Positions 3,941-60,252 of a DNA stretch of 64,000 nucleotides are shown piece by piece. The notes below the pieces were generated by a model that worked only from the letters and a program-made list of their open reading frames with translations, ran no database searches and had not been told where the DNA came from. Made by a program: the position numbers and the translations under genes. The stretch lies in the sequence record MH791411.1. The stretch is one strand, 5' to 3'. The number at the start of each line of letters is the position of its first letter. The first letter of the stretch is position 1. The DNA is from Escherichia phage Ecwhy_1.

Positions 3941-4164
3941 GATTTTATTCCTTAATATACCAGGGAGAACCATTCCCCCTCTCGATATAAAACATTATAC
4001 TTGATTCTAAGTACAATGCAAGTACTTTTTTAAAAATAGTTTTCAGTACTGAATACTTATATAATAGATACACTTCCGCACCCTATGGGTCAGTGAGTTA
4101 TCTCTCAATGGATATATAATAGCAAAGGGACTGACCGGAGTCAATCCCTTTTTTTAATCTTTTT

Positions 4165-7262: not shown

Positions 7263-7432
7263 AAACATTATACTTGATTCTAAGTACAATGCAAGTACTT
7301 TTTTAAAAATAGTTTTCAGTACTAGCCACCAGCAAACAATAGATACATTTATGCACCCTGTGGGCTAATTTGTTTCTATGCGTATATAATAGCAAAGGGA
7401 CTGACCGGAGTCAATCCCTTTTTCAAATATTT

Positions 7433-10869: not shown

Positions 10870-11211
10870 TTATTCGAAATCTTCTGGACCGGACTGATAA
10901 TCATCTTCACCGTATGCACTTTCTAACCGCTCGCCAGTGTGATCATCAGTTAGTGAGTCATCCTCATAGTTCACGTCTACGCCAGTGATGTAAAACTGGC
11001 TATCGTCTGGATCATTGAAATTAATTTTCTGTATGTTTACAATAACTGTATTGATGCCCAGGACACCGCCATCAGCCGTTACAAAGTACTGATAGTTTTC
11101 GCAACCGCCTGAATTGAAACCGTAATTAATTTCGGCCCGACCATCATTTAAACGCAGTGCCTGGGCGATGATTTCGTTTTCAAAGTTAGATTGAGCAATT
11201 GAGATAGTCAT
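10870..11211 (-). CDS. hypothetical protein (113 aa)
   Basis: Trimmed to MTISIA start; promoter+hairpin upstream. Confidence 0.6.
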   Translation of the reverse strand: MTISIAQSNFENEIIAQALRLNDGRAEINYGFNSGGCENYQYFVTADGGVLGINTVIVNIQKINFNDPDDSQFYITGVDVNYEDDSLTDDHTGERLESAYGEDDYQSGPEDFE

Positions 11212-11663
11212 GATTTGTTTCCTTATTACCAGGGGAAACCGTTTCCCCCTCTCGATGTAAAACATTATACGCTTATTGAGATAGTTTGCAAGTACTTTCT
11301 ACAAATACTTTTAAAATAGTTTTCAGTACTCAATACTCATATAATAGATACACTTATGCACCCTGTGGGCTAGTGAGCTATCTCTCAATGAATATATAAT
11401 AGCAAAATGGCTGACCGGAGTCAACCACTTTTTTCATTTATTTTTAGCTTTTAGAATCGCCGCCTTTCGCGTCATGCCTTGCTTGATGTATTCTTGTACT
11501 TTCGCTTTACGTGCATTCGCTTTATTTGCTTTCGTAAATGCCGAACAACTTTTATAGTTTAAACCTGTTGGATTCATTTAAATCACCATAAAGAATAGAT
11601 AGGTTACTAACAACGCCGCGATCAATGCACCGACCAGGGCCGAACTATAGTAAGCTAATGTTT

Positions 11664-36652: not shown

Positions 36653-37840
36653 ATGTTACCTTTTGCAAGAATGGTTAAGTACGGGAATAAAGTCATTCCA
36701 TATGTTCCCAATTTTACTAAATTAGTCACCCCAGCAGTTGGTTATTCATTTACATGCACAATGCTGCTTGATGTAAATGGATCAGTGTGGGCTATGGGTC
36801 TTCAGAATGCAGGAATTTTTGGGTTAGGTAATACTACACAGGTTACTGAATGGACAAAAATATATAACAATGTTAAAGATTTTTGGTGCAGCACGGGGAA
36901 TGGTTTTTGTCTAATACGAACAAATGATGATAGATTCTTTTATAGTGGTTTAGATAAATGGCTAGGTAACAATACAACAAATACTGTAACAACATTCACT
37001 GAATGTACGAGTTATTTTACACAATTTGGTATTTCAAAAATCAAAGAAATATATGTAGGTCTTGATTATGCTTTGATTTTAGGTACTGATAATAGTTTAT
37101 ATTTGTTAGGTGATAATAAAAATTCAAAGTTTGGTTTAAACACTGCATCATATTTTAATAAATTTACATTTTTAGTCGATAATGTTAAAAAATTCTGTTC
37201 ATCCATCACACCATCTAACTGGATTATTAAACTAGATAATACAATATGGCGTACTGGGACAACATCTCATGGAACGTTGGGAAATGGAGTTCAAAACACA
37301 TATATATTTCCTTGGGTTCAATATAAGGGCACACCTGTTACCGAAGCTATAGACGTTTTTTGTAGTGCGAGTTATATTGGTATTATAACTAAAGGTACAC
37401 CAGAATCATGTCCTATGTATACACTAGGCTATCAAGCTGATGGTCAGTTGGGTAATAATACTACAGCAGGGGGTTATAAATTAACGCCAACATTATCGAA
37501 AACCGTTCCAGATGATAGTGAATTCATTCGAATTGAAAACATCTCATCCCGTGGTCTGGTATATTATAGCTCTGGTAAAATTTATAGTACTGGTTATAAT
37601 AACAATGGTCAGTTGGCAAATAATACTAAAATCAATTCTGGTTCATTTGTTGAAGCAATTTTACCTAATGGTGTTAACTTTAAGAAAAGTGAATCACTTG
37701 TAGCTGGGAACGATGCAACGTTGTATATGTACATTAATAATAAATTATACTACGCGGGGAAATCTCCTGATAATATTTCAGCAAGTAGTTCGTCTGTCAT
37801 GAAAGAATTCCCACTTCCAACAATTAATGCCAGTACTTGA
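36653..37840 (+). CDS. RCC1-like repeat protein, paralog 9 (395 aa)
   Basis: MLPFARMVKYGN; SD AAAGGAGG. Confidence 0.75.
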   Translation: MLPFARMVKYGNKVIPYVPNFTKLVTPAVGYSFTCTMLLDVNGSVWAMGLQNAGIFGLGNTTQVTEWTKIYNNVKDFWCSTGNGFCLIRTNDDRFFYSGLDKWLGNNTTNTVTTFTECTSYFTQFGISKIKEIYVGLDYALILGTDNSLYLLGDNKNSKFGLNTASYFNKFTFLVDNVKKFCSSITPSNWIIKLDNTIWRTGTTSHGTLGNGVQNTYIFPWVQYKGTPVTEAIDVFCSASYIGIITKGTPESCPMYTLGYQADGQLGNNTTAGGYKLTPTLSKTVPDDSEFIRIENISSRGLVYYSSGKIYSTGYNNNGQLANNTKINSGSFVEAILPNGVNFKKSESLVAGNDATLYMYINNKLYYAGKSPDNISASSSSVMKEFPLPTINAST

Positions 37841-37892
37841 TACTGGCTTTTCTTTTTGTATTAAATATAGTATAATGAATAAAGGAGGGAAT

Positions 37893-39044
37893 ATGTTACC
37901 TTTTGCAAGAATGGTTAAGTACGGGAATATTGCACCAGTTCCTGTAGTTCCTACAATAAAAGATTTTAAGATTGGATTTTCACATGAAGTGTTATTGGAC
38001 AGTGCAGGTGATGTATGGGGTATTGGATACAATACAGATGGACAGTTGGGATTTCTGGATGCTAACACAAATTCAATAGGAATGTGGTCTAAGATACATG
38101 AGAATGTTAGATTAATTGGCGTTACTGCCAATTATACTGTAGTTGTTACAAATGATAATAGAATACTTTACGCCGGAAATAACTTAATTTCTAGTACTAC
38201 AACGCTTGGGTGGAACGATATAACGTCCAGTATGGGAGAGGTTGCAGTGGATAGTATAGATACATTATATTGCACAGATGGAATGATGCATATTAAAACT
38301 GCTGATGGCTCTTTATATGCATATGGACGTAATATGAACGCGAACGCTGGAGTTACAGGCGTTTCTGGCGTTATTAGTGTTGCAACTAAAGTTAGTGGTT
38401 TACCATCGGCAGTGAAGGATATACGATATACGTTTAGTTATGGTTCAGTACTATGCCAATTTGATACCACTTCGGTATATGGATGGGGAAGAAATGTCAA
38501 TGGTGAATTAGGTCAGGGGAATGCAGCCGCAGTTCCTGCCCCATACCTATTGGCGGGAGCTTCTATTGTTATAGGTACTTCTTATAATGCTACTGCCATT
38601 GTTTCTGGTACTGGAACGTTAGTTACATGTGGTGGACAAAATAATGGTCAGTTAGGTAATGGTATTACTACTGCTGGTAATGTATACATATATGGTGCTA
38701 GGTCATACCCTGGCGATCTTAATAATATAAGAAGTCCAGTAGATTGTAGTACAACTTATACTTCCGCATTTATGAGTACAGATGGTATATATTACACGGG
38801 TTCGAACCGAAGTGTTTTTGGTGGTGCGAGTGGTTCTGCTACTGTTGCATTATATACTAAATGTAGTGATTTGCCAATATTATATTCCAATATAACTCAG
38901 TGGGGTAGTGGTACTATTGGTGGGGCGATATGTAGCAGAACTGAATTATATCAGTGTGGTACAGGTAGATACATTGCCGGAGATGGACAGAACGCAACTA
39001 GGTATGGGTTTAGAAAGACACCATTACCTTGGGATGTTTATTGA
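37893..39044 (+). CDS. RCC1-like repeat protein, paralog 10 (383 aa)
   Basis: MLPFARMVKYGN; SD AAAGGAGGG. Confidence 0.75.
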   Translation: MLPFARMVKYGNIAPVPVVPTIKDFKIGFSHEVLLDSAGDVWGIGYNTDGQLGFLDANTNSIGMWSKIHENVRLIGVTANYTVVVTNDNRILYAGNNLISSTTTLGWNDITSSMGEVAVDSIDTLYCTDGMMHIKTADGSLYAYGRNMNANAGVTGVSGVISVATKVSGLPSAVKDIRYTFSYGSVLCQFDTTSVYGWGRNVNGELGQGNAAAVPAPYLLAGASIVIGTSYNATAIVSGTGTLVTCGGQNNGQLGNGITTAGNVYIYGARSYPGDLNNIRSPVDCSTTYTSAFMSTDGIYYTGSNRSVFGGASGSATVALYTKCSDLPILYSNITQWGSGTIGGAICSRTELYQCGTGRYIAGDGQNATRYGFRKTPLPWDVY

Positions 39045-39114
39045 AATAATGCCAGTACTCTGTACTGGCTTTTCTTTTTGATTAAATATAGTATAAAGAA
39101 TAAAGGAGGGAATT

Positions 39115-40251
39115 ATGTTACCTTTTGCAAGAATGGTTAAGTACGGGAATATAAAAGTAAAGAGTACTATACAAAAAGTTATACTTGGTGGTGGTGGTCA
39201 ATGTGTGGTAACATTACTCAGTGATGGTAGAGTGTATGGACGTGGTTACAACACTACACATGGGTTAGGTACTGGTACAACAACATTCGTAAGTGATTGG
39301 GTATTAATGGGAGATAATATTGTTGATATCCATTCAAATGGTGTTACTGGAACATTCCTTATTACCAAAGAAAATAGAATATTGTATTCTGGTTTTGCGA
39401 CACCAATCAATGGCACAACATCACATTATACACGTTTCACTGATTTAACATCAACTGTATTTGCTGCGGTGGATGTTAGTAATATTAAAACAATTACGGG
39501 AAATGGTAATGTTACAATGGTTCTTTTGAATGATGGTTCACTTTATGGGAGTGGTGCAAATATAGGGGTTATAGGTAATGGTAGTAACGTTGCATTATCA
39601 ACACAAACATATGTGACTAATGATGTGCGTGATGTGAAAACATATCCATCAATGAACACTATAACAAAAAATAATAATCAAATATTGGCTAGTGGTATTT
39701 TATACCAAGGCGTGAACGGTACAAATTCATCAATAAACACGTCTTCATATACATTACTGTACACATTACCGAGTTCTGATTGTTTTCAATTTGCATTTGA
39801 TACATATACATTTGGATATGTTGACCCTAGTACTAACACTTCTTATATAAGAGGTATACCAATAAATGGTTCATTAGGTAATGGCGTTACTAATAATACA
39901 GCAGTTACAACATGGGTTACTAAAGTTTGGAATACACCAATTGATAGTTCTATACCTAATAAATCATATACAACTAACCATGTCTCCTTGTTCAATGATG
40001 GAAACTTATGGACAACTGGTGCATCTAGTGTAGGTTATTCCAATGGTACAAATAGCACAACAGCTAATACATGGACCAGTTCATCTAATTTACCATTCAA
40101 CACTAATAACATAACAGACTATGCTTTTGGTGGTAGTATTACTGTAGTGGTAATCGACTACAGGACTATGTACATACTAGCTAACAACGCCATTGCTGGT
40201 ACTGCTACGACAACTTATAAATTTGAGCCATATAATTCTCCACCAGTTTAA
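39115..40251 (+). CDS. RCC1-like repeat protein, paralog 11 (378 aa)
   Basis: MLPFARMVKYGN; SD AAAGGAGGG; -10 variant TATAAAG. Confidence 0.75.
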   Translation: MLPFARMVKYGNIKVKSTIQKVILGGGGQCVVTLLSDGRVYGRGYNTTHGLGTGTTTFVSDWVLMGDNIVDIHSNGVTGTFLITKENRILYSGFATPINGTTSHYTRFTDLTSTVFAAVDVSNIKTITGNGNVTMVLLNDGSLYGSGANIGVIGNGSNVALSTQTYVTNDVRDVKTYPSMNTITKNNNQILASGILYQGVNGTNSSINTSSYTLLYTLPSSDCFQFAFDTYTFGYVDPSTNTSYIRGIPINGSLGNGVTNNTAVTTWVTKVWNTPIDSSIPNKSYTTNHVSLFNDGNLWTTGASSVGYSNGTNSTTANTWTSSSNLPFNTNNITDYAFGGSITVVVIDYRTMYILANNAIAGTATTTYKFEPYNSPPV

Positions 40252-40283
40252 TATAATGCCAGTACTATGTACTGGCTTTTCTT

Positions 40284-40934
40284 TTACATATTATATAATG
40301 TGAATGCAGTCACTTTACCAGTTGTTGTTAGTTCATTATAAAGATACTCCAAGATTCTCGCACACTCTAAGTATATCTCGATATCATCATGAATAAGTGA
40401 GTACTGAAATAGCTGTTCTTCAGGTAATTTGTATTGACTTCCTTTTAATGAATTGAGAATATCTTTCACATCATCAAGTACTGGGTAAAGTACGAAATCT
40501 TCATCATATTTTGAAGCAATAAATTCAAATCCACCACCATCAGTACTAGATATACCAATCAGTACTTTATCAATCAAGTTAATGTTTATATAACGGTTGT
40601 GATTTGGGTGAATTGAAATCTCAAACATAAGAGTACTGTTACAATCAACATCAATATACAAATATACATCATTGAATTTATAAGTTAAGCAACCGTACTC
40701 AAGAAAATCAGAGCAAATAATTGATGAGTTTTTTCTCGTCTCTGCGTAATGCATCTTGATATTCTTTTCACGCATAAGTAATTCGAACTTTGCACTAAAC
40801 TTGCCACCAGCAAGATAGTTAGTATTAGGACGTTTGTAACTTGCAACTGGTCGGTGGGATGATGTAAAGTATTTTTTTGTGAATCGTTTATGTTTAGTGA
40901 AATATTCTTGATAGAACTTACTTCTTTTATTCAT
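40284..40934 (-). CDS. hypothetical protein (216 aa), opposite strand inside the RCC1-like array
   Basis: ORF; convergent with paralog 11 and sharing its terminator hairpin. Confidence 0.6.
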   Translation of the reverse strand: MNKRSKFYQEYFTKHKRFTKKYFTSSHRPVASYKRPNTNYLAGGKFSAKFELLMREKNIKMHYAETRKNSSIICSDFLEYGCLTYKFNDVYLYIDVDCNSTLMFEISIHPNHNRYININLIDKVLIGISSTDGGGFEFIASKYDEDFVLYPVLDDVKDILNSLKGSQYKLPEEQLFQYSLIHDDIEIYLECARILEYLYNELTTTGKVTAFTLYNM

Positions 40935-41011
40935 GAGTACCTCAATTAAATCGCTGTAAAATTGTACATTATAAAATGATTAAATAAAGTATAACACAAG
41001 GAGATTTTATC

Positions 41012-42136
41012 ATGTTACCTTTCGTATTGTTATTTGATTATGGGAACGAAAAACAAGAAAGTTCTTATGATGTTAGTGTATATGGAAACAATAACTACAT
41101 TTTAAATAAACAAACTGGAAACCTTTTTGCATCCGGTGCTGCGGCATTCATGGGTGATAACACAGTTAAGTATTATATTACCCAAATAGAATCAAATGTT
41201 CATAGCTGTGAGATAGGTTTCCTATCATCATGGATAATTAAGAAGGACAAAACTGTTTTCATTTTAGGAAACAAAAGCAGTATAGGATTAACTGGTTCGA
41301 CAACATCATGGTTCGAAATTACAAATTTATTTTCTGCTGTTCCTGAAATATGGGACAACCTATTTGAATGTAAAGTTCAATTGGGATATAACTGTATACG
41401 TGTTATGACACCACTAGGATCAATCTATGCGATTGGTACAAACACTTATGGTGCATTGGGTACTGGTACTACATCCTCATCAACTTCGTTCGTTAAAAGT
41501 GGTGCTGTGGATGCTGTACGCATGGAATCAACAGAACGTTCAGTGTTCTATCAAAACAGTTCTGGACAATGGTTTGGATGTGGTGATAACACATATGGTA
41601 TACTAGGTCTAGGAACTACCGCGAGTCGTGTAAACTCATACACCGCACCAGTATGGACTAATGCAGAAGCTGTTAGCTTCTCTAACCGTGGGATCATATA
41701 CAGCCTCAATGGTACTCTATACTCATGTGGTGACAAAGTTAATGGTCAGCTAGGGGATGGATATACACAAAGCATAGACGCTGCCAGGAGCACACCATAC
41801 ACCATAGGAACCGCATTCCAAATTGGTAAGGCAATAACATCAGCTACACAAGCATCAGCCAACGTATTCATTGGTAAAGATAATAAGTTCTATGGTACTG
41901 GTAGTATTGCTGCTGGTATAAATGGTAGTGCTAGTGCTGCATTAAGTAAAGTTACTGCGTTATCAGCATCACTACCACCTGACATTACATACAATGATAT
42001 TATAACATTTAATACAGGGACCGTAACTTTTATTCAAGCAAAAGGACAACTATATTATGTTGGTAGAAGAACTTACATAGATAATAGTTCAGACGTTACC
42101 ACACAGTTCAGTGTAATTGGTGGCTTAGATAATTAA
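41012..42136 (+). CDS. RCC1-like repeat protein, divergent paralog 12 (374 aa)
   Basis: MLPFVLLFDYGN; blocks GTNTYGALGTG, GDNTYGILGLG, VNGQLGDGY; SD AAGGAG. Confidence 0.7.
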   Translation: MLPFVLLFDYGNEKQESSYDVSVYGNNNYILNKQTGNLFASGAAAFMGDNTVKYYITQIESNVHSCEIGFLSSWIIKKDKTVFILGNKSSIGLTGSTTSWFEITNLFSAVPEIWDNLFECKVQLGYNCIRVMTPLGSIYAIGTNTYGALGTGTTSSSTSFVKSGAVDAVRMESTERSVFYQNSSGQWFGCGDNTYGILGLGTTASRVNSYTAPVWTNAEAVSFSNRGIIYSLNGTLYSCGDKVNGQLGDGYTQSIDAARSTPYTIGTAFQIGKAITSATQASANVFIGKDNKFYGTGSIAAGINGSASAALSKVTALSASLPPDITYNDIITFNTGTVTFIQAKGQLYYVGRRTYIDNSSDVTTQFSVIGGLDN

Positions 42137-44679: not shown

Positions 44680-45450
44680 TTAAATTTTCTCAAGGAACAA
44701 GTTTTCGCACTGCTCTTCCCAATCATACGGATTGTTGTTGTATACTGCTGAAATCAACAGAGGCATACGCAGTGAAGGAGCACGAAGTGCATCTTCATGT
44801 TTCAGCATCCAATTCAGGATTGCTTTGCTACCATTACTATTAACACCTTTAGTTGACAGGATGTTGGTCTTGTTCATTACGTTTTCAATGTGAATCATGA
44901 TATCGCTTTTAGTCTGGATCTGTAAGTCAACATACACAGAGCGAGACATAAGAGCAGCATAGTGAGCAGACATTTTGGTTTTAGCTTTAGCATTCAGTGC
45001 TAAATCTTTGTTAGTAATGAATACGATACGACCGTTAAAATCAAAGCTGTTAGGGATACCGTTGGTAGTTAAGTACTTAGAGCTAGTCATGTAAGACACA
45101 GTACGTTTACCGCTGTCCAGTACAGCTTTGAGCAGGTTCATACCGTCTTCTGAATCAAAGATGCTGTCCATATCATCCAGTACTAATACGTTGGTGCTGT
45201 GACGATTCTTGTACAGAACTTCATACAGAGCAAGAGTAGTCATCTTACCACTGATAGTAGCTACGTTCCATTCTGCTGCGTCATGAGCTTTCTGGAGGCG
45301 TTGTGACAGGGTGTAAGTCTTACCAACACCAGGTGCACCGCTGACAACCATACTTTTTACAGTACTGTTATCGTCGAGCAAACACTCAAGAGCAACCATC
45401 ATGGAGTTGAAGTTTTTCTGAATTTGAATGCTACGTGCTTCTCTGGTCAT
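44680..45450 (-). CDS. P-loop NTPase (AAA+/DnaC-IstB-like ATPase), 256 aa
   Basis: Walker A GAPGVGKT, Walker B-like VLVLDDMD; SD GAGGATAAC. Confidence 0.6.
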   Translation of the reverse strand: MTREARSIQIQKNFNSMMVALECLLDDNSTVKSMVVSGAPGVGKTYTLSQRLQKAHDAAEWNVATISGKMTTLALYEVLYKNRHSTNVLVLDDMDSIFDSEDGMNLLKAVLDSGKRTVSYMTSSKYLTTNGIPNSFDFNGRIVFITNKDLALNAKAKTKMSAHYAALMSRSVYVDLQIQTKSDIMIHIENVMNKTNILSTKGVNSNGSKAILNWMLKHEDALRAPSLRMPLLISAVYNNNPYDWEEQCENLFLEKI

Positions 45451-45517
45451 TTCGTTATCCTCATCAATTGATGAAATAATTATAGCAAAAAGGGCTGACC
45501 TAAGTCAACCCTTTTGT

Positions 45518-46861
45518 TTAGTTTTGTTTCACCCCACCCCATTTTTCATAGATGGCAATAATTTTATCTATGTTGTTTGGTGTAGTTGTTTCTGTATACC
45601 CATCCCCCACCTCTCTTTTAGTGAAGATTGGACAAAACTGCCTTTTACATTCATTTTCTGCGTTAGTACAATTTCCAACACTTGGAAAGCGATACGAATA
45701 CATTGGTTTTATATCAAAAATACTATTCAAATTTTGTTTTGAAACTCGATTGCCCTTTACTGTTTCTTTTCCATATTTCACACCAACACATACCCCGCTG
45801 TCCATTATTACATGAATATATGTATATGTTGCACACTTTCCGGCATCATATGGGTTACCTTGATGTTTATCTAAAAAGTTCGTTATAGATGTTTTATATG
45901 GTAAATTATTACTACTCCCCATCAACATTATGTTAGTTTTCTGATTTGGTTTTTCTGGATTGTGTTCAAACCCTATAAATTTATCATTTGAATTACGAAA
46001 TTCTAATTCCTTTTTTATACGATATACATACTGTGATTTAGTCCAGTGGAAATTAGTTGAACACCTACACGGTATAATATGTGCAGATGATAAATCATTT
46101 AGTGTTGCGTAGAATACACCATCACATACACCAGCTTGTACATATTCATCATAACTACACTTCGCACACACAAATTTGTATAAACGATAATTTCCCCTCA
46201 TCTTTTCTGATGGTTGAATTGTAAATTCATTAGTTAAATGACCATTATTATTAATTTTATCTATATGATATTGTAGTGGTTTAGAGTTAGTTTTAGTTAT
46301 TGACTCTTTTTTACATTTCATACAACCAAATGTTTTATTTTTTGATGTTAACGTATTAATATTAGAAATCGAACAAAACACATTATGTTTGTTACAATAA
46401 ATTAGTATCTCAGTGTTGGTAGCATTAATTTTATCATAAGAACCAAGACCCAATAATGTATATATCCCACCACTGAATTTTTTGAATTGTTCAATAATAG
46501 TCATAATATGTTGTGTATTTGTTTTCTTTGTCCACTTTGTTGCAGATTTCTTTTTAGTAATATGTATGGAGTTTATTCCCAATCCATATATTAAACCATT
46601 CGGGACATCATATTTTTTAAGATAGTGTTTACTATTATTGTAAATGAAATATCCCAAAATCGAGTTATCATTATTGGAAAAATCATCTTGGGGTAATTTA
46701 TTAAAATCCATATGGTTGAAATCTTTTGTTGGATGGCGTTCTGATAAAATAATACGAGTTATTTTATCAGAATCGACCATTTTTGAACAAATTGTAATTC
46801 TAACATCTTGTATGAAATTCAATTTGGTACATTTAAAAGGTACTTTAATATCAACACGCAT
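45518..46861 (-). CDS. hypothetical Cys-rich protein (447 aa)
   Basis: ORF; SD AAGGAG; several C-x2-C pairs (CMKCKK, CAKCS). Confidence 0.6.
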   Translation of the reverse strand: MRVDIKVPFKCTKLNFIQDVRITICSKMVDSDKITRIILSERHPTKDFNHMDFNKLPQDDFSNNDNSILGYFIYNNSKHYLKKYDVPNGLIYGLGINSIHITKKKSATKWTKKTNTQHIMTIIEQFKKFSGGIYTLLGLGSYDKINATNTEILIYCNKHNVFCSISNINTLTSKNKTFGCMKCKKESITKTNSKPLQYHIDKINNNGHLTNEFTIQPSEKMRGNYRLYKFVCAKCSYDEYVQAGVCDGVFYATLNDLSSAHIIPCRCSTNFHWTKSQYVYRIKKELEFRNSNDKFIGFEHNPEKPNQKTNIMLMGSSNNLPYKTSITNFLDKHQGNPYDAGKCATYTYIHVIMDSGVCVGVKYGKETVKGNRVSKQNLNSIFDIKPMYSYRFPSVGNCTNAENECKRQFCPIFTKREVGDGYTETTTPNNIDKIIAIYEKWGGVKQN

Positions 46862-47090: not shown

Positions 47091-47210
47091 GTATTGCCTC
47101 TTGAGATGATGAAATAATTATAGCAAAAAGGGCTGACCTAAGTCAACCCTGTTTTAAAGTTTTTTTAATATGTTGATAACGACGGTATGTATTCACCATC
47201 TGTCATCATT

Positions 47211-48146: not shown

Positions 48147-48341
48147 CTAATCCTCACTGAAAACAACAATAAGGAATGACACGAACAATGCCGCATAACA
48201 AGGAGCTATCTTCATGTACCACGGGACTTCATAATACCATGTACCCAATTCATCCCACGAAAAGAGTATACTCACACCGAAGCCGATTAGCGATAGTACA
48301 ATAAAAGAAATCCAGAAACGCTTTGAATATACTAATAACAT
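48147..48341 (-). CDS. small membrane protein (64 aa)
   Basis: Two hydrophobic segments; SD AAAGGAAC. Confidence 0.5.
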   Translation of the reverse strand: MLLVYSKRFWISFIVLSLIGFGVSILFSWDELGTWYYEVPWYMKIAPCYAALFVSFLIVVFSED

Positions 48342-48379
48342 GTTATGTTCCTTTGTGTGACCGAAGTTAACCCTTACCT

Positions 48380-48895
48380 TTAATAATTATTCATTTCATC
48401 TTTGATTTGTTCTTCAATTTCGTCGAACATATCAGTACTAGATTCTATATTACTACTTACGTCCTGCATATCTTTAACGTACTGTGGGCGTTCAACGTCA
48501 GTAAATTTATACCACATAGGCTTCATATGGAGCTTCTCAATCAAACGCTCACGAGACATTTTAATCTCTGACTCCGATGGTACGTAGTCATTACAAAACT
48601 CAGCAGGGAAGCCGCTAATGTCGTTTACTTCAGTGTTTTGAATCTTCATCCCACGACGCAAACATTCGTTAACAATATCAATATGACGCTTCTGTAAGTA
48701 CAATAACTTGTTGTAGAAGAATGTTACATGACCTGAACCTAACAGGTAAGTACTGTTAATTTTGAAATCACGGACTCGCTTACGTGCTTGAACATGTTTT
48801 TGTACAGCACCAAACACACGTGGGAGTTCACGATATTCAGCCATCAGATGTTGGTCAGCAAGTTCTTTAACGTGTACTAAGTTAATGCGTGTCAT
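48380..48895 (-). CDS. denV: pyrimidine dimer DNA glycosylase (T4 endonuclease V homolog), 171 aa
   Basis: N-terminal ~130 aa aligns from memory to T4 DenV ([42 protein letters not shown]); acidic C-terminal extension; SD GAGAGGATG. Confidence 0.85.
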
Positions 48896-48936
48896 GTATT
48901 CATCCTCTCGTTTCGATGAAATGATTATAGCAAAAA

Positions 48937-48956
48937 GGGCTGACCGAAGTCAACCC
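48937..48956 (-). terminator. terminator hairpin carrying the -35 of the next promoter (example; 8 copies between 45491 and 60069)
   Basis: - strand GGGTTGACTTCGGTCAGCCC + TTTTTGCTATAAT: stem contains TTGACT, T-run runs into TATAAT. Confidence 0.55.
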
Positions 48957-53371: not shown

Positions 53372-53437
53372 GTTTGCCTCCAGTAGTTGATGAAATGATT
53401 ATAGCAAAAAGGGCCGACCGAAGTCAACCCTTTTCTT

Positions 53438-54050: not shown

Positions 54051-54121
54051 TGCATTACCTCTTATAAAACCCTCTACAATATTTACAAAAAAAGGTTGAC
54101 CGAAGTCAACCTTTTAAATGT

Positions 54122-55633: not shown

Positions 55634-55714
55634 ATTGTTTATTCTCTATGACTATATTTATAGTATAAAGAAAAGGTTGACCGAAGTCAACCCTATTTTC
55701 ACTGTACTATACCA

Positions 55715-56271: not shown

Positions 56272-56480
56272 GATATCCCTTATTTGGTTTGTTCAAAACT
56301 AGGTGTATTGATATAGGTGTCAATTGAATAACATACTGTACCCACTACAACAGCAGCGATTAGGGCAGCGATGATGAATTTAGTACCTTGCATAATTTAA
56401 TACCTCACGTTGTTTGTATTTTGTATCACTTGATGAAAATATTATACGACAAAGGGCTGACTGAAGTCAACCCCTTTTAA

Positions 56481-60005: not shown

Positions 60006-60060
60006 AATTAAAATCCCCAGTAGTTGATGAAATAATTATAACAAAAAAGGTTGACCGAAG

Positions 60061-60252
60061 TCAACCTTTATTTTGAAGTTCTTGAACTAATTGTCGTACT
60101 TCTTTGATGTTATGACACTGCTTTACAGTGAAGTAATCATACTTACGACCATAGGTTCTTGGATCATCACCTTCCATATACTGCTGCACATCAAAGATTT
60201 GTAAGTAGGGATGCTGCATAACACGAATGTTACCACATTGATAAATCAACAT
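60061..60252 (-). CDS. hypothetical small protein (about 63 aa)
   Basis: Track ORF begins at a GTG; trimmed to ATG with SD GAGGA. Confidence 0.45.
   Translation of the reverse strand: MLIYQCGNIRVMQHPYLQIFDVQQYMEGDDPRTYGRKYDYFTVKQCHNIKEVRQLVQELQNKG

Follow-up and report, generated by a model that had tools for sequence, protein, structure and literature searches.

The open reading frame at 48380-48895 on the minus strand of the window (the whole 64,000-nucleotide stretch of DNA that was analysed) very probably encodes a functional DenV-type cyclobutane-pyrimidine-dimer DNA glycosylase/AP lyase, as judged for both enzyme identity and mechanism from sequence comparison. The protein is an ordinary DenV, already known and annotated as such. 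Its acidic C-terminal tail is a real, dispensable and lineage-restricted extension. The gene and its parts were delimited as follows.

48380 to 48895, minus strand: denV coding sequence, 171 codons plus a TAA stop at 48380-48382, with an ATG start.
48503 to 48895, minus strand: catalytic core, residues 1-131, colinear with T4 endonuclease V in an ungapped alignment to 2END.
48464 to 48502, minus strand: short extension, residues 132-144, taken from the alignment of 30 homologs and the 3'-end DNA alignment.
48383 to 48463, minus strand: acidic tail, residues 145-171, 27 aa, net charge -8.

The open reading frame is intact, and its translation gives a product of 171 aa that begins with MTRINL. 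The initial annotation had described the product as a homolog of T4 endonuclease V (DenV) whose first ~130 residues align closely to the T4 protein, and the similarity search against the endonuclease V family that it proposed as a check was highly significant. Using phmmer against PDB sequences, the product matched 2END (T4 endonuclease V) with E=7e-53 over residues 1-131 of both proteins and with no gaps, 83 of these 131 residues being identical (63%). Pfam PF03013 (Pyr_excise) was matched with 55.2 bits (E=9e-15), where the gathering cutoff is 23 bits, and PHROG 1183 (“endonuclease V N-glycosylase UV repair enzyme”) with E=4.5e-58 across profile positions 1-137 of 139. Homology and close alignment were thus both borne out, and so was the report of an N-terminal MTRINL together with a 21-residue stretch, the latter being identical to T4 residues 11-31 in the alignment to 2END.

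A structure of the window DenV was predicted with AF2 from an alignment of 30 sequences (mean pLDDT 82) and compared to the PDB using Foldseek. The best matches were 2END, 1ENK, 1ENJ and 1ENI (TM-target 0.83-0.85, E~1e-14), with 2END at E=2.5e-14, TM-target 0.83 and rmsd 2.5 A, and entries of T4 endonuclease V were the sole significant PDB matches. The predicted structure fits the single-domain all-alpha fold of 2END.

The established essential residues of T4 DenV are taken here to be Thr2, Arg3, Arg22, Glu23, Arg26, Arg117, Lys121 and Trp128-Tyr129-Lys130, where the alpha-amino group of Thr2 is the nucleophile once Met1 has been removed and Glu23 the catalytic acid. The core of the window DenV keeps T2, R3, E20, Y21, R22, E23, R26, H56, R117, K121, W128, Y129 and K130, and the EYRELPR motif (E20, Y21, R22, E23, L24, P25, R26) was invariant in all 30 aligned homologs, the window DenV included. 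The MTR N-terminus is read from MTRINL at the first ATG after the Shine-Dalgarno sequence, an upstream ATG being out of frame. Y131/Y132 of the T4 aromatic C-terminal segment are F131/T132 in the window DenV and also in other jumbo-phage members; the replacement of Y131 by F is conservative, and the W128-Y129-K130 segment is present.

Because all relevant residues are kept, we infer that the window DenV would follow the T4 mechanism. With Met1 cleaved off, Thr2 would use its alpha-amino group to attack C1' of the dimer's 5' pyrimidine and form a Schiff-base intermediate with Glu23 assisting, and R3, R22, R26, R117 and K121 on the protein's basic face would hold the kinked DNA. Beta-elimination would then produce a strand nick, and host AP endonuclease, Pol I and ligase would finish short-patch repair.

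Members of the DenV family differ in lesion spectrum, as reported for some homologs, and the window protein could accordingly be a DenV fold with a shifted substrate range (other dimer isomers, Fapy lesions) that does not primarily repair cis-syn CPDs. Apart from this general variation, the differences from T4 speak for such a shift, namely F131/T132 in place of Y131/Y132 and ~37% overall divergence. The known dimer-DNA-contact and catalytic residues are, however, all identical to those of T4, and 63% identity without gaps across the core makes a change of primary substrate unlikely, so we regard this reading as improbable. It is more improbable still that the long reading frame is an artefact (a sequencing frameshift or read-through) or an inactive relic. 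The difference in length from T4 DenV was the sole point found in favour of this, against an uninterrupted 171-codon frame in 17 independently sequenced phages and a start context, Shine-Dalgarno sequence, promoter and set of catalytic residues that are all intact. With the long form carried by 17 independent genomes, a frameshift or assembly artefact was rejected.

The enzyme being a DenV by these comparisons, its distinguishing part is the C-terminus. The window DenV is 33 aa longer than T4 DenV (171 vs 138 aa), in agreement with the earlier estimate of about 30 aa, and the Glu/Asp-rich tail that had been noted was found in residues 132-171, which contain 12 D/E and 3 K/R (net -9, pI 4.05). 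The core has a net charge of +7 and a pI of 9.5. After WYKF, the first ~13 aa of the extension (residues 132-144) are of a type common to all Rak2-like jumbo-phage DenVs in the 30-homolog alignment, with the consensus T.VE.P.YY.DM, and stand where T4 has YGKAIYA. The acidic tail that follows is made up of a Ser/Thr/Asn-rich linker and then a 14-residue terminal motif (48383-48424, minus strand).

AF2 placed residues 138-169 in one helix with modest confidence (block pLDDT 52-71), and at this only moderate model confidence the tail may be disordered. In the last 18 residues, the hydrophobic side chains F157, I160, I164, M168 and Y171 fall on one face, and the hydrophobic moment of 0.48 was reached by only 0.16% of composition-matched shuffles. 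The terminal motif is a predicted amphipathic helix.

Homologs of the tail outside denV were searched for with tblastn, using the 40-aa query on 50,697 phage records at E<=10, and none were found beyond chance-level Microviridae matches. The phmmer search of the tail against 1.84 billion representatives gave 0 matches at E<=0.001, and among the proteins of the 64-kb window the terminal motif was found on the denV product only. PHROG 20902 (unknown function) matched residues 116-169 with E=0.027, which was judged not significant. The ORF at 10870-11298 (minus strand) also has a C-terminus that is strongly acidic (…DDHTGERLESAYGEDDYQSGPEDFE; its last 25 aa carry net -9), with a sequence unrelated to the DenV tail.

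Alleles with and without the tail were counted among phage records at E<=1e-60. The tail-bearing form, of 171 or 167 aa, was present in 18 records (17 phages). Tail-less forms were present in about 14 Asteriusvirus-like records, which were those of PBECO4, phAPEC6, slurp01, CMSTMSU, A4, SHEFM2K, Turkey3/5, WPEC3/5 and three Salmonella SD phages, and all are 144-aa alleles except SD-2_S15, which is a fusion. The “standard” jumbo length without the tail is 144-147 aa, as in RaK2, K64-1, CBB and PBECO4. Among the best 80 relatives in IMG/VR, the tail was seen in 121Q only, the other lengths falling into clusters of 134-139 aa (T4-like) and 144-147 aa (jumbo). Members of the genus thus differ in the tail, which about half of the sister phages lack. 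It is accessory and not needed for basic function, as the naturally occurring 144-aa alleles of sister phages show.

In the alignment of 3'-end DNA, the two kinds of allele, with and without the tail, part at about codon 136. Tail-less forms were also considered as nonsense truncations of the long form, and this was rejected because the DNA differs from codon ~136 onward. The denV 3' end (48464-48502, codons ~132-144; also at loci L004, L006 and L089) was observed to be a recombination junction. The 242-aa protein of Salmonella phage SD-2_S15 (P0005) is an in-frame fusion of denV with an ORF that is found downstream in phAPEC6 and PBECO4. Unrelated tails occur on other metagenomic DenVs (P0012, P0014 and P0017), and P0026 has an independent tail that is likewise acidic and aromatic.

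The terminal motif, written as [DE][IV]E[EQR]QIK[DE]EMN, is kept in XbC2, P0015 and P0008 behind linkers that differ in length and sequence. The DenV of XbC2 (Mimasvirus) has 179 aa, ends in …EDVERQIKEEMNNY and has a core 68% identical to that of the window DenV. The DenV of metagenomic cluster P0015 ends in …ENIERQIKEEMNNY and that of P0008 (176 aa) in …EDIEQQIKDEMNLE, both with cores 73% identical to the window DenV. Between the window and XbC2, 6 of the last 14 codons differ, only 1 of them synonymously, in a synonymous/non-synonymous count that covers few sites, and nucleotide identity is 81% in these 14 codons (42 nt) vs 71% in the core. Because terminal nucleotide identity exceeds that of the core and there is almost no synonymous change, a recent transfer of the denV 3' end could account for the conservation of the motif, instead of purifying selection on the peptide.

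These patterns bear on whether the tail does anything at all. It may be a selectively neutral appendage, a by-product of recombination or indels at a plastic 3' boundary that is translated and functionless, and we give this somewhat less than an even chance. Such an origin would fit a tail that is present in 17 close relatives and absent from about 14, at a 3' end that also gave rise to the 242-aa SD-2_S15 fusion and the unrelated tails of P0012, P0014, P0017 and P0026. It would likewise fit the absence of homologs among 1.84 billion representatives and outside denV in 50,697 phage records, and the terminal 42 nt, which are more conserved in DNA than the core and almost free of synonymous change. 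Neutrality is harder to reconcile with the fact that three lineages have retained the terminal 13-14 residues despite core identities of only 68-73% and dissimilar linkers. The clean amphipathic pattern of F157, I160, I164, M168 and Y171, with a moment that 0.16% of shuffles reach, also argues against it, as does the P0026 tail, which is independent and yet acidic and aromatic as well.

A specific function of any kind for the tail is, in our judgement, doubtful. One version, which we consider rather unlikely, is that the acidic amphipathic C-terminal helix would be a functional regulatory module added to DenV by jumbo phages, serving as an intramolecular DNA mimic or a docking peptide. T4 DenV locates dimers by salt-sensitive electrostatic scanning of non-target DNA, and by analogy an appendage of -9 on a core of +7 would be expected to weaken or tune DNA binding if folded back; the acidic tails of T4 gp32, T7 gp2.5, E. 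coli SSB and HMGB1 follow the same principle. In the reading that we prefer, the helix would fold back on the basic face and temper the electrostatic, non-specific DNA binding that is used for scanning. Alternatively or additionally, the tail would dock on a partner protein, as the tails of T4 gp32, T7 gp2.5 and E. coli SSB do, and in this docking version dimer incision would be coupled to the phage replisome or to a repair partner. If a regulatory helix of this kind were real, a textbook DNA glycosylase would here have acquired a natural ‘tail switch’. The tail-plus and tail-minus alleles provide a simple experimental handle on charge effects in glycosylase target search.

The DNA flanking denV contains a repeated cassette made up of a hairpin and a promoter. 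The features on either side of the gene and the copies of the cassette in the window are listed below.

48904 to 48909, minus strand: Shine-Dalgarno sequence GAGAGG, 8 nt upstream of the ATG, read from the sequence.
48924 to 48953, minus strand: sigma70-type promoter, TTGACT, 18-nt spacer and TG-TATAAT, 11/12 matches, extended -10.
48937 to 48956, minus strand: hairpin GGGTTGAC-TTCG-GTCAGCCC, then a T-run, an intrinsic-terminator-like stem-loop from the terminator scan.
48355 to 48373, minus strand: decayed cassette copy GGGTTAACTTCGGTCACAC, directly after the denV stop, with no T-run and no -10 box.
48147 to 48341, minus strand: 64-aa hydrophobic small ORF, present in 121Q and EcMJ, absent from BF17 and TH47.
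4128-4147, 7398-7417, 11408-11427, 45492-45511, 47130-47149 and 48937-48956, minus strand: cassette copies, first part, from the 20-mer search.
53411-53430, 54093-54112, 55674-55693, 56454-56473 and 60048-60067, minus strand: cassette copies, second part, from the 20-mer search.

The predicted transcription start lies ~22 nt before the denV ATG. The hairpin is 42 nt upstream of the ATG, with TTTTTGC-TATAAT after the stem, and the -35 box TTGACT sits within the 5' arm of the stem; its RNA fold was calculated at -16.8 kcal/mol (z=-4.6). At 48950-48956 the TGA stop of the upstream ORF (…KNPFKTG*) falls inside the GGGTTGAC arm, so that the coding end, terminator stem and -35 box overlap. The hairpin 20-mer occurs in 11 copies in the 64-kb window, all on the minus strand, vs 0 expected, and the copies align over about 55 nt that include the hairpin, the T-run, the -10 box TATAAT and a conserved leader. 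The same arrangement was found upstream of denV in 121Q, BF17, ph0011, PBECO4, RaK2, CBB, XbC2 and a metagenome contig. Phage XbC2 (L003, OP292654.1) is labelled a Xanthomonas phage and classified in Mimasvirus, and its denV region has both the PeSL-like cassette and the DenV tail motif, as in enterobacterial jumbo phages. A search of the whole window against Rfam at gathering thresholds gave no match, the cassette not being a curated RNA family, and a tRNA search of the window found none.

Downstream of denV, the decayed copy no longer folds (-1.5 kcal/mol, z=0.3). It follows the denV stop in 121Q and vB_Ec-M-J as it does in the window, and BF17, ph0011 and TH47 have an intact or near-intact cassette at that position. 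The sequences of BF17, TH47 and ph0011 diverge from the window directly after this downstream cassette. A family search with the 64-aa ORF gave no match above threshold. As there is no functional terminator or promoter between them, this ORF is probably co-transcribed with denV. From the sequence signals, denV would be transcribed early by host sigma70 RNA polymerase from its own hairpin-terminator/promoter cassette, and the transcription unit would begin with the promoter at 48924-48953, take in denV and the small downstream ORFs and end at the next intact cassette, at 47130-47149.

In its make-up the cassette resembles a PeSL, a composite of terminator and sigma70 promoter, and it marks the gene-content breakpoints seen here. 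PeSL (promoter-early stem-loop) elements of T4-type phages are described as mediators of modular shuffling in the parts of two studies that deal with them (PMC2839356; PMC4122927). As part of a plastic early region, denV would be a mobile module, and the tail/no-tail polymorphism would result from recombination in or close to the cassettes that flank it.

To find the source of the window, the 1.8 kb around the gene were searched with megablast and the protein with tblastn, and both searches matched E. coli jumbo phages of the genus Asteriusvirus. The matched genomes (121Q, PBECO4, BF17, TH47, G17, SP27 and others; 347-386 kb) showed 94-98% nucleotide identity, with protein identity up to 98.8%. 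The window is from an Asteriusvirus, a 121Q/PBECO4-like E. coli jumbo phage, and the initial annotation had been right to take it for phage DNA. Its further suggestion of a UV-exposed lifestyle was not supported, as relatives with denV come from sewage, pig and poultry farms, rivers and hospital effluent. T4, which is from similar habitats, also carries denV. Given this and the varied sources of the relatives, little can be read from the gene about ecology.

Public records already contain the 171-aa protein under the name “endonuclease V”, in 121Q, BF17, EcMJ, G17 and others, and further labels in the records of relatives are “endonuclease V N-glycosylase UV repair enzyme” and “pyrimidine dimer DNA glycosylase”. 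The 121Q protein, gp217, has 171 aa and is 94.7% identical to the window DenV. In the sections of the CBB paper that treat T4 homologs of Rak2-like phages, “UV repair endonuclease V (CBB_519)” is listed among them, and it lies within CBB_390-546, a region of short ORFs with many RpoD-like promoters that is read there as early genes (PMC5259590). A survey of jumbo phages records T4 endonuclease V in a subset of them (PMC7824862). The gene confirms the window as that of a 121Q-like jumbo coliphage, and otherwise adds nothing beyond the GenBank annotation and the papers on Rak2-like phages.

The genes next to denV vary among relatives and include HNH endonuclease insertions that adjoin it. An HNH homing-endonuclease gene is located directly upstream of denV in vB_Ec-M-J (L007 3314-3727), JP4, UB, fEgEco12 and WPEC3, and is absent from the window. 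Farther away, at 26881-42136, the plus strand (opposite to the denV region) carries a row of 12 ORFs, each of 358-414 aa, that seem to form a large paralogous family; the two of them that were tested (29278-30456 and 35390-36577) match RCC1-like beta-propeller repeats (PF25390, PF00415, PF13540). A 447-aa ORF at 45518-46861 (minus strand) matches the endonuclease PHROG phrog_681 and carries a CapR homology domain. The adjoining 256-aa P-loop/AAA-like ORF at 44680-45450 (minus strand) matched generic AAA/STAND NTPase models only, most of them below threshold. By length and position it appears to be the vB_Ec-M-J gene labelled ‘clamp loader of DNA polymerase’, and this label looks weak because of those generic and mostly subthreshold matches.

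The window DenV shares 63-66% identity with Tequatrovirus DenVs, vs about 36% with the DenV of KVP40. T4-like core proteins of Rak2-like phages in rows of Table 3 of PMC5259590 are about 28-38% identical to their T4 counterparts. Because 63-66% identity to the T-even DenV is an outlier against these values for the proteins in those rows, it is probable that T-even and jumbo phages of enterobacteria have exchanged DenV as a cassette with its own promoter.

The architecture of the window DenV has possible functional analogues in T4 gp32, T7 gp2.5 and E. coli SSB, which likewise combine a basic DNA-binding core, a flexible linker and an acidic terminus that ends in an aromatic residue. There is no sequence similarity to these proteins and DenV is a monomeric glycosylase; the likeness would be one of function and not of family. 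The closest proteins are 121Q gp217 and its orthologs (TH47, BF17, vB_Ec-M-J, G17, SP27 and others), which have 171 aa, are 94-99% identical including the tail and share the upstream cassette; they differ by point differences only, with downstream neighbours that vary between phages. The tail-less DenVs of PBECO4, phAPEC6 and slurp01 and of RaK2, K64-1 and CBB (144-147 aa) have the core, the 13-aa extension and the upstream PeSL-like cassette in common with the window DenV, but end at …YY..M(I/L) and lack the acidic tail. In phAPEC6 and CMSTMSU the DNA of the tail-less forms differs from codon ~136, and these are different alleles.

The cassette upstream of denV is like the PeSL cassettes of Arbiol et al. 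2010 (PMC2839356) and Comeau et al. 2014 (PMC4122927), as these are characterised in the relevant parts of both papers, in that a stem-loop terminator is joined to a near-consensus sigma70 early promoter, and in being repeated in plastic short-ORF regions at gene-content breakpoints between close relatives. It is unlike those described there in having its -35 hexamer inside the 5' stem arm and in belonging to Rak2-like jumbo phages.

With T4 endonuclease V (DenV; PDB 2END/1VAS/2FCC), the window DenV has in common 131 colinear residues, MTRINL, E23, the basic DNA-binding residues and WYK. Where the T4 enzyme ends in YYGKAIYA, the window DenV has a 13-residue stretch and the 27-aa acidic tail, and its overall net charge is -2 vs +5 for T4 DenV. 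The two genes also differ in their host genomes, that of the window DenV being a ~350-kb Rak2-like jumbo phage and that of T4 DenV a T-even phage.
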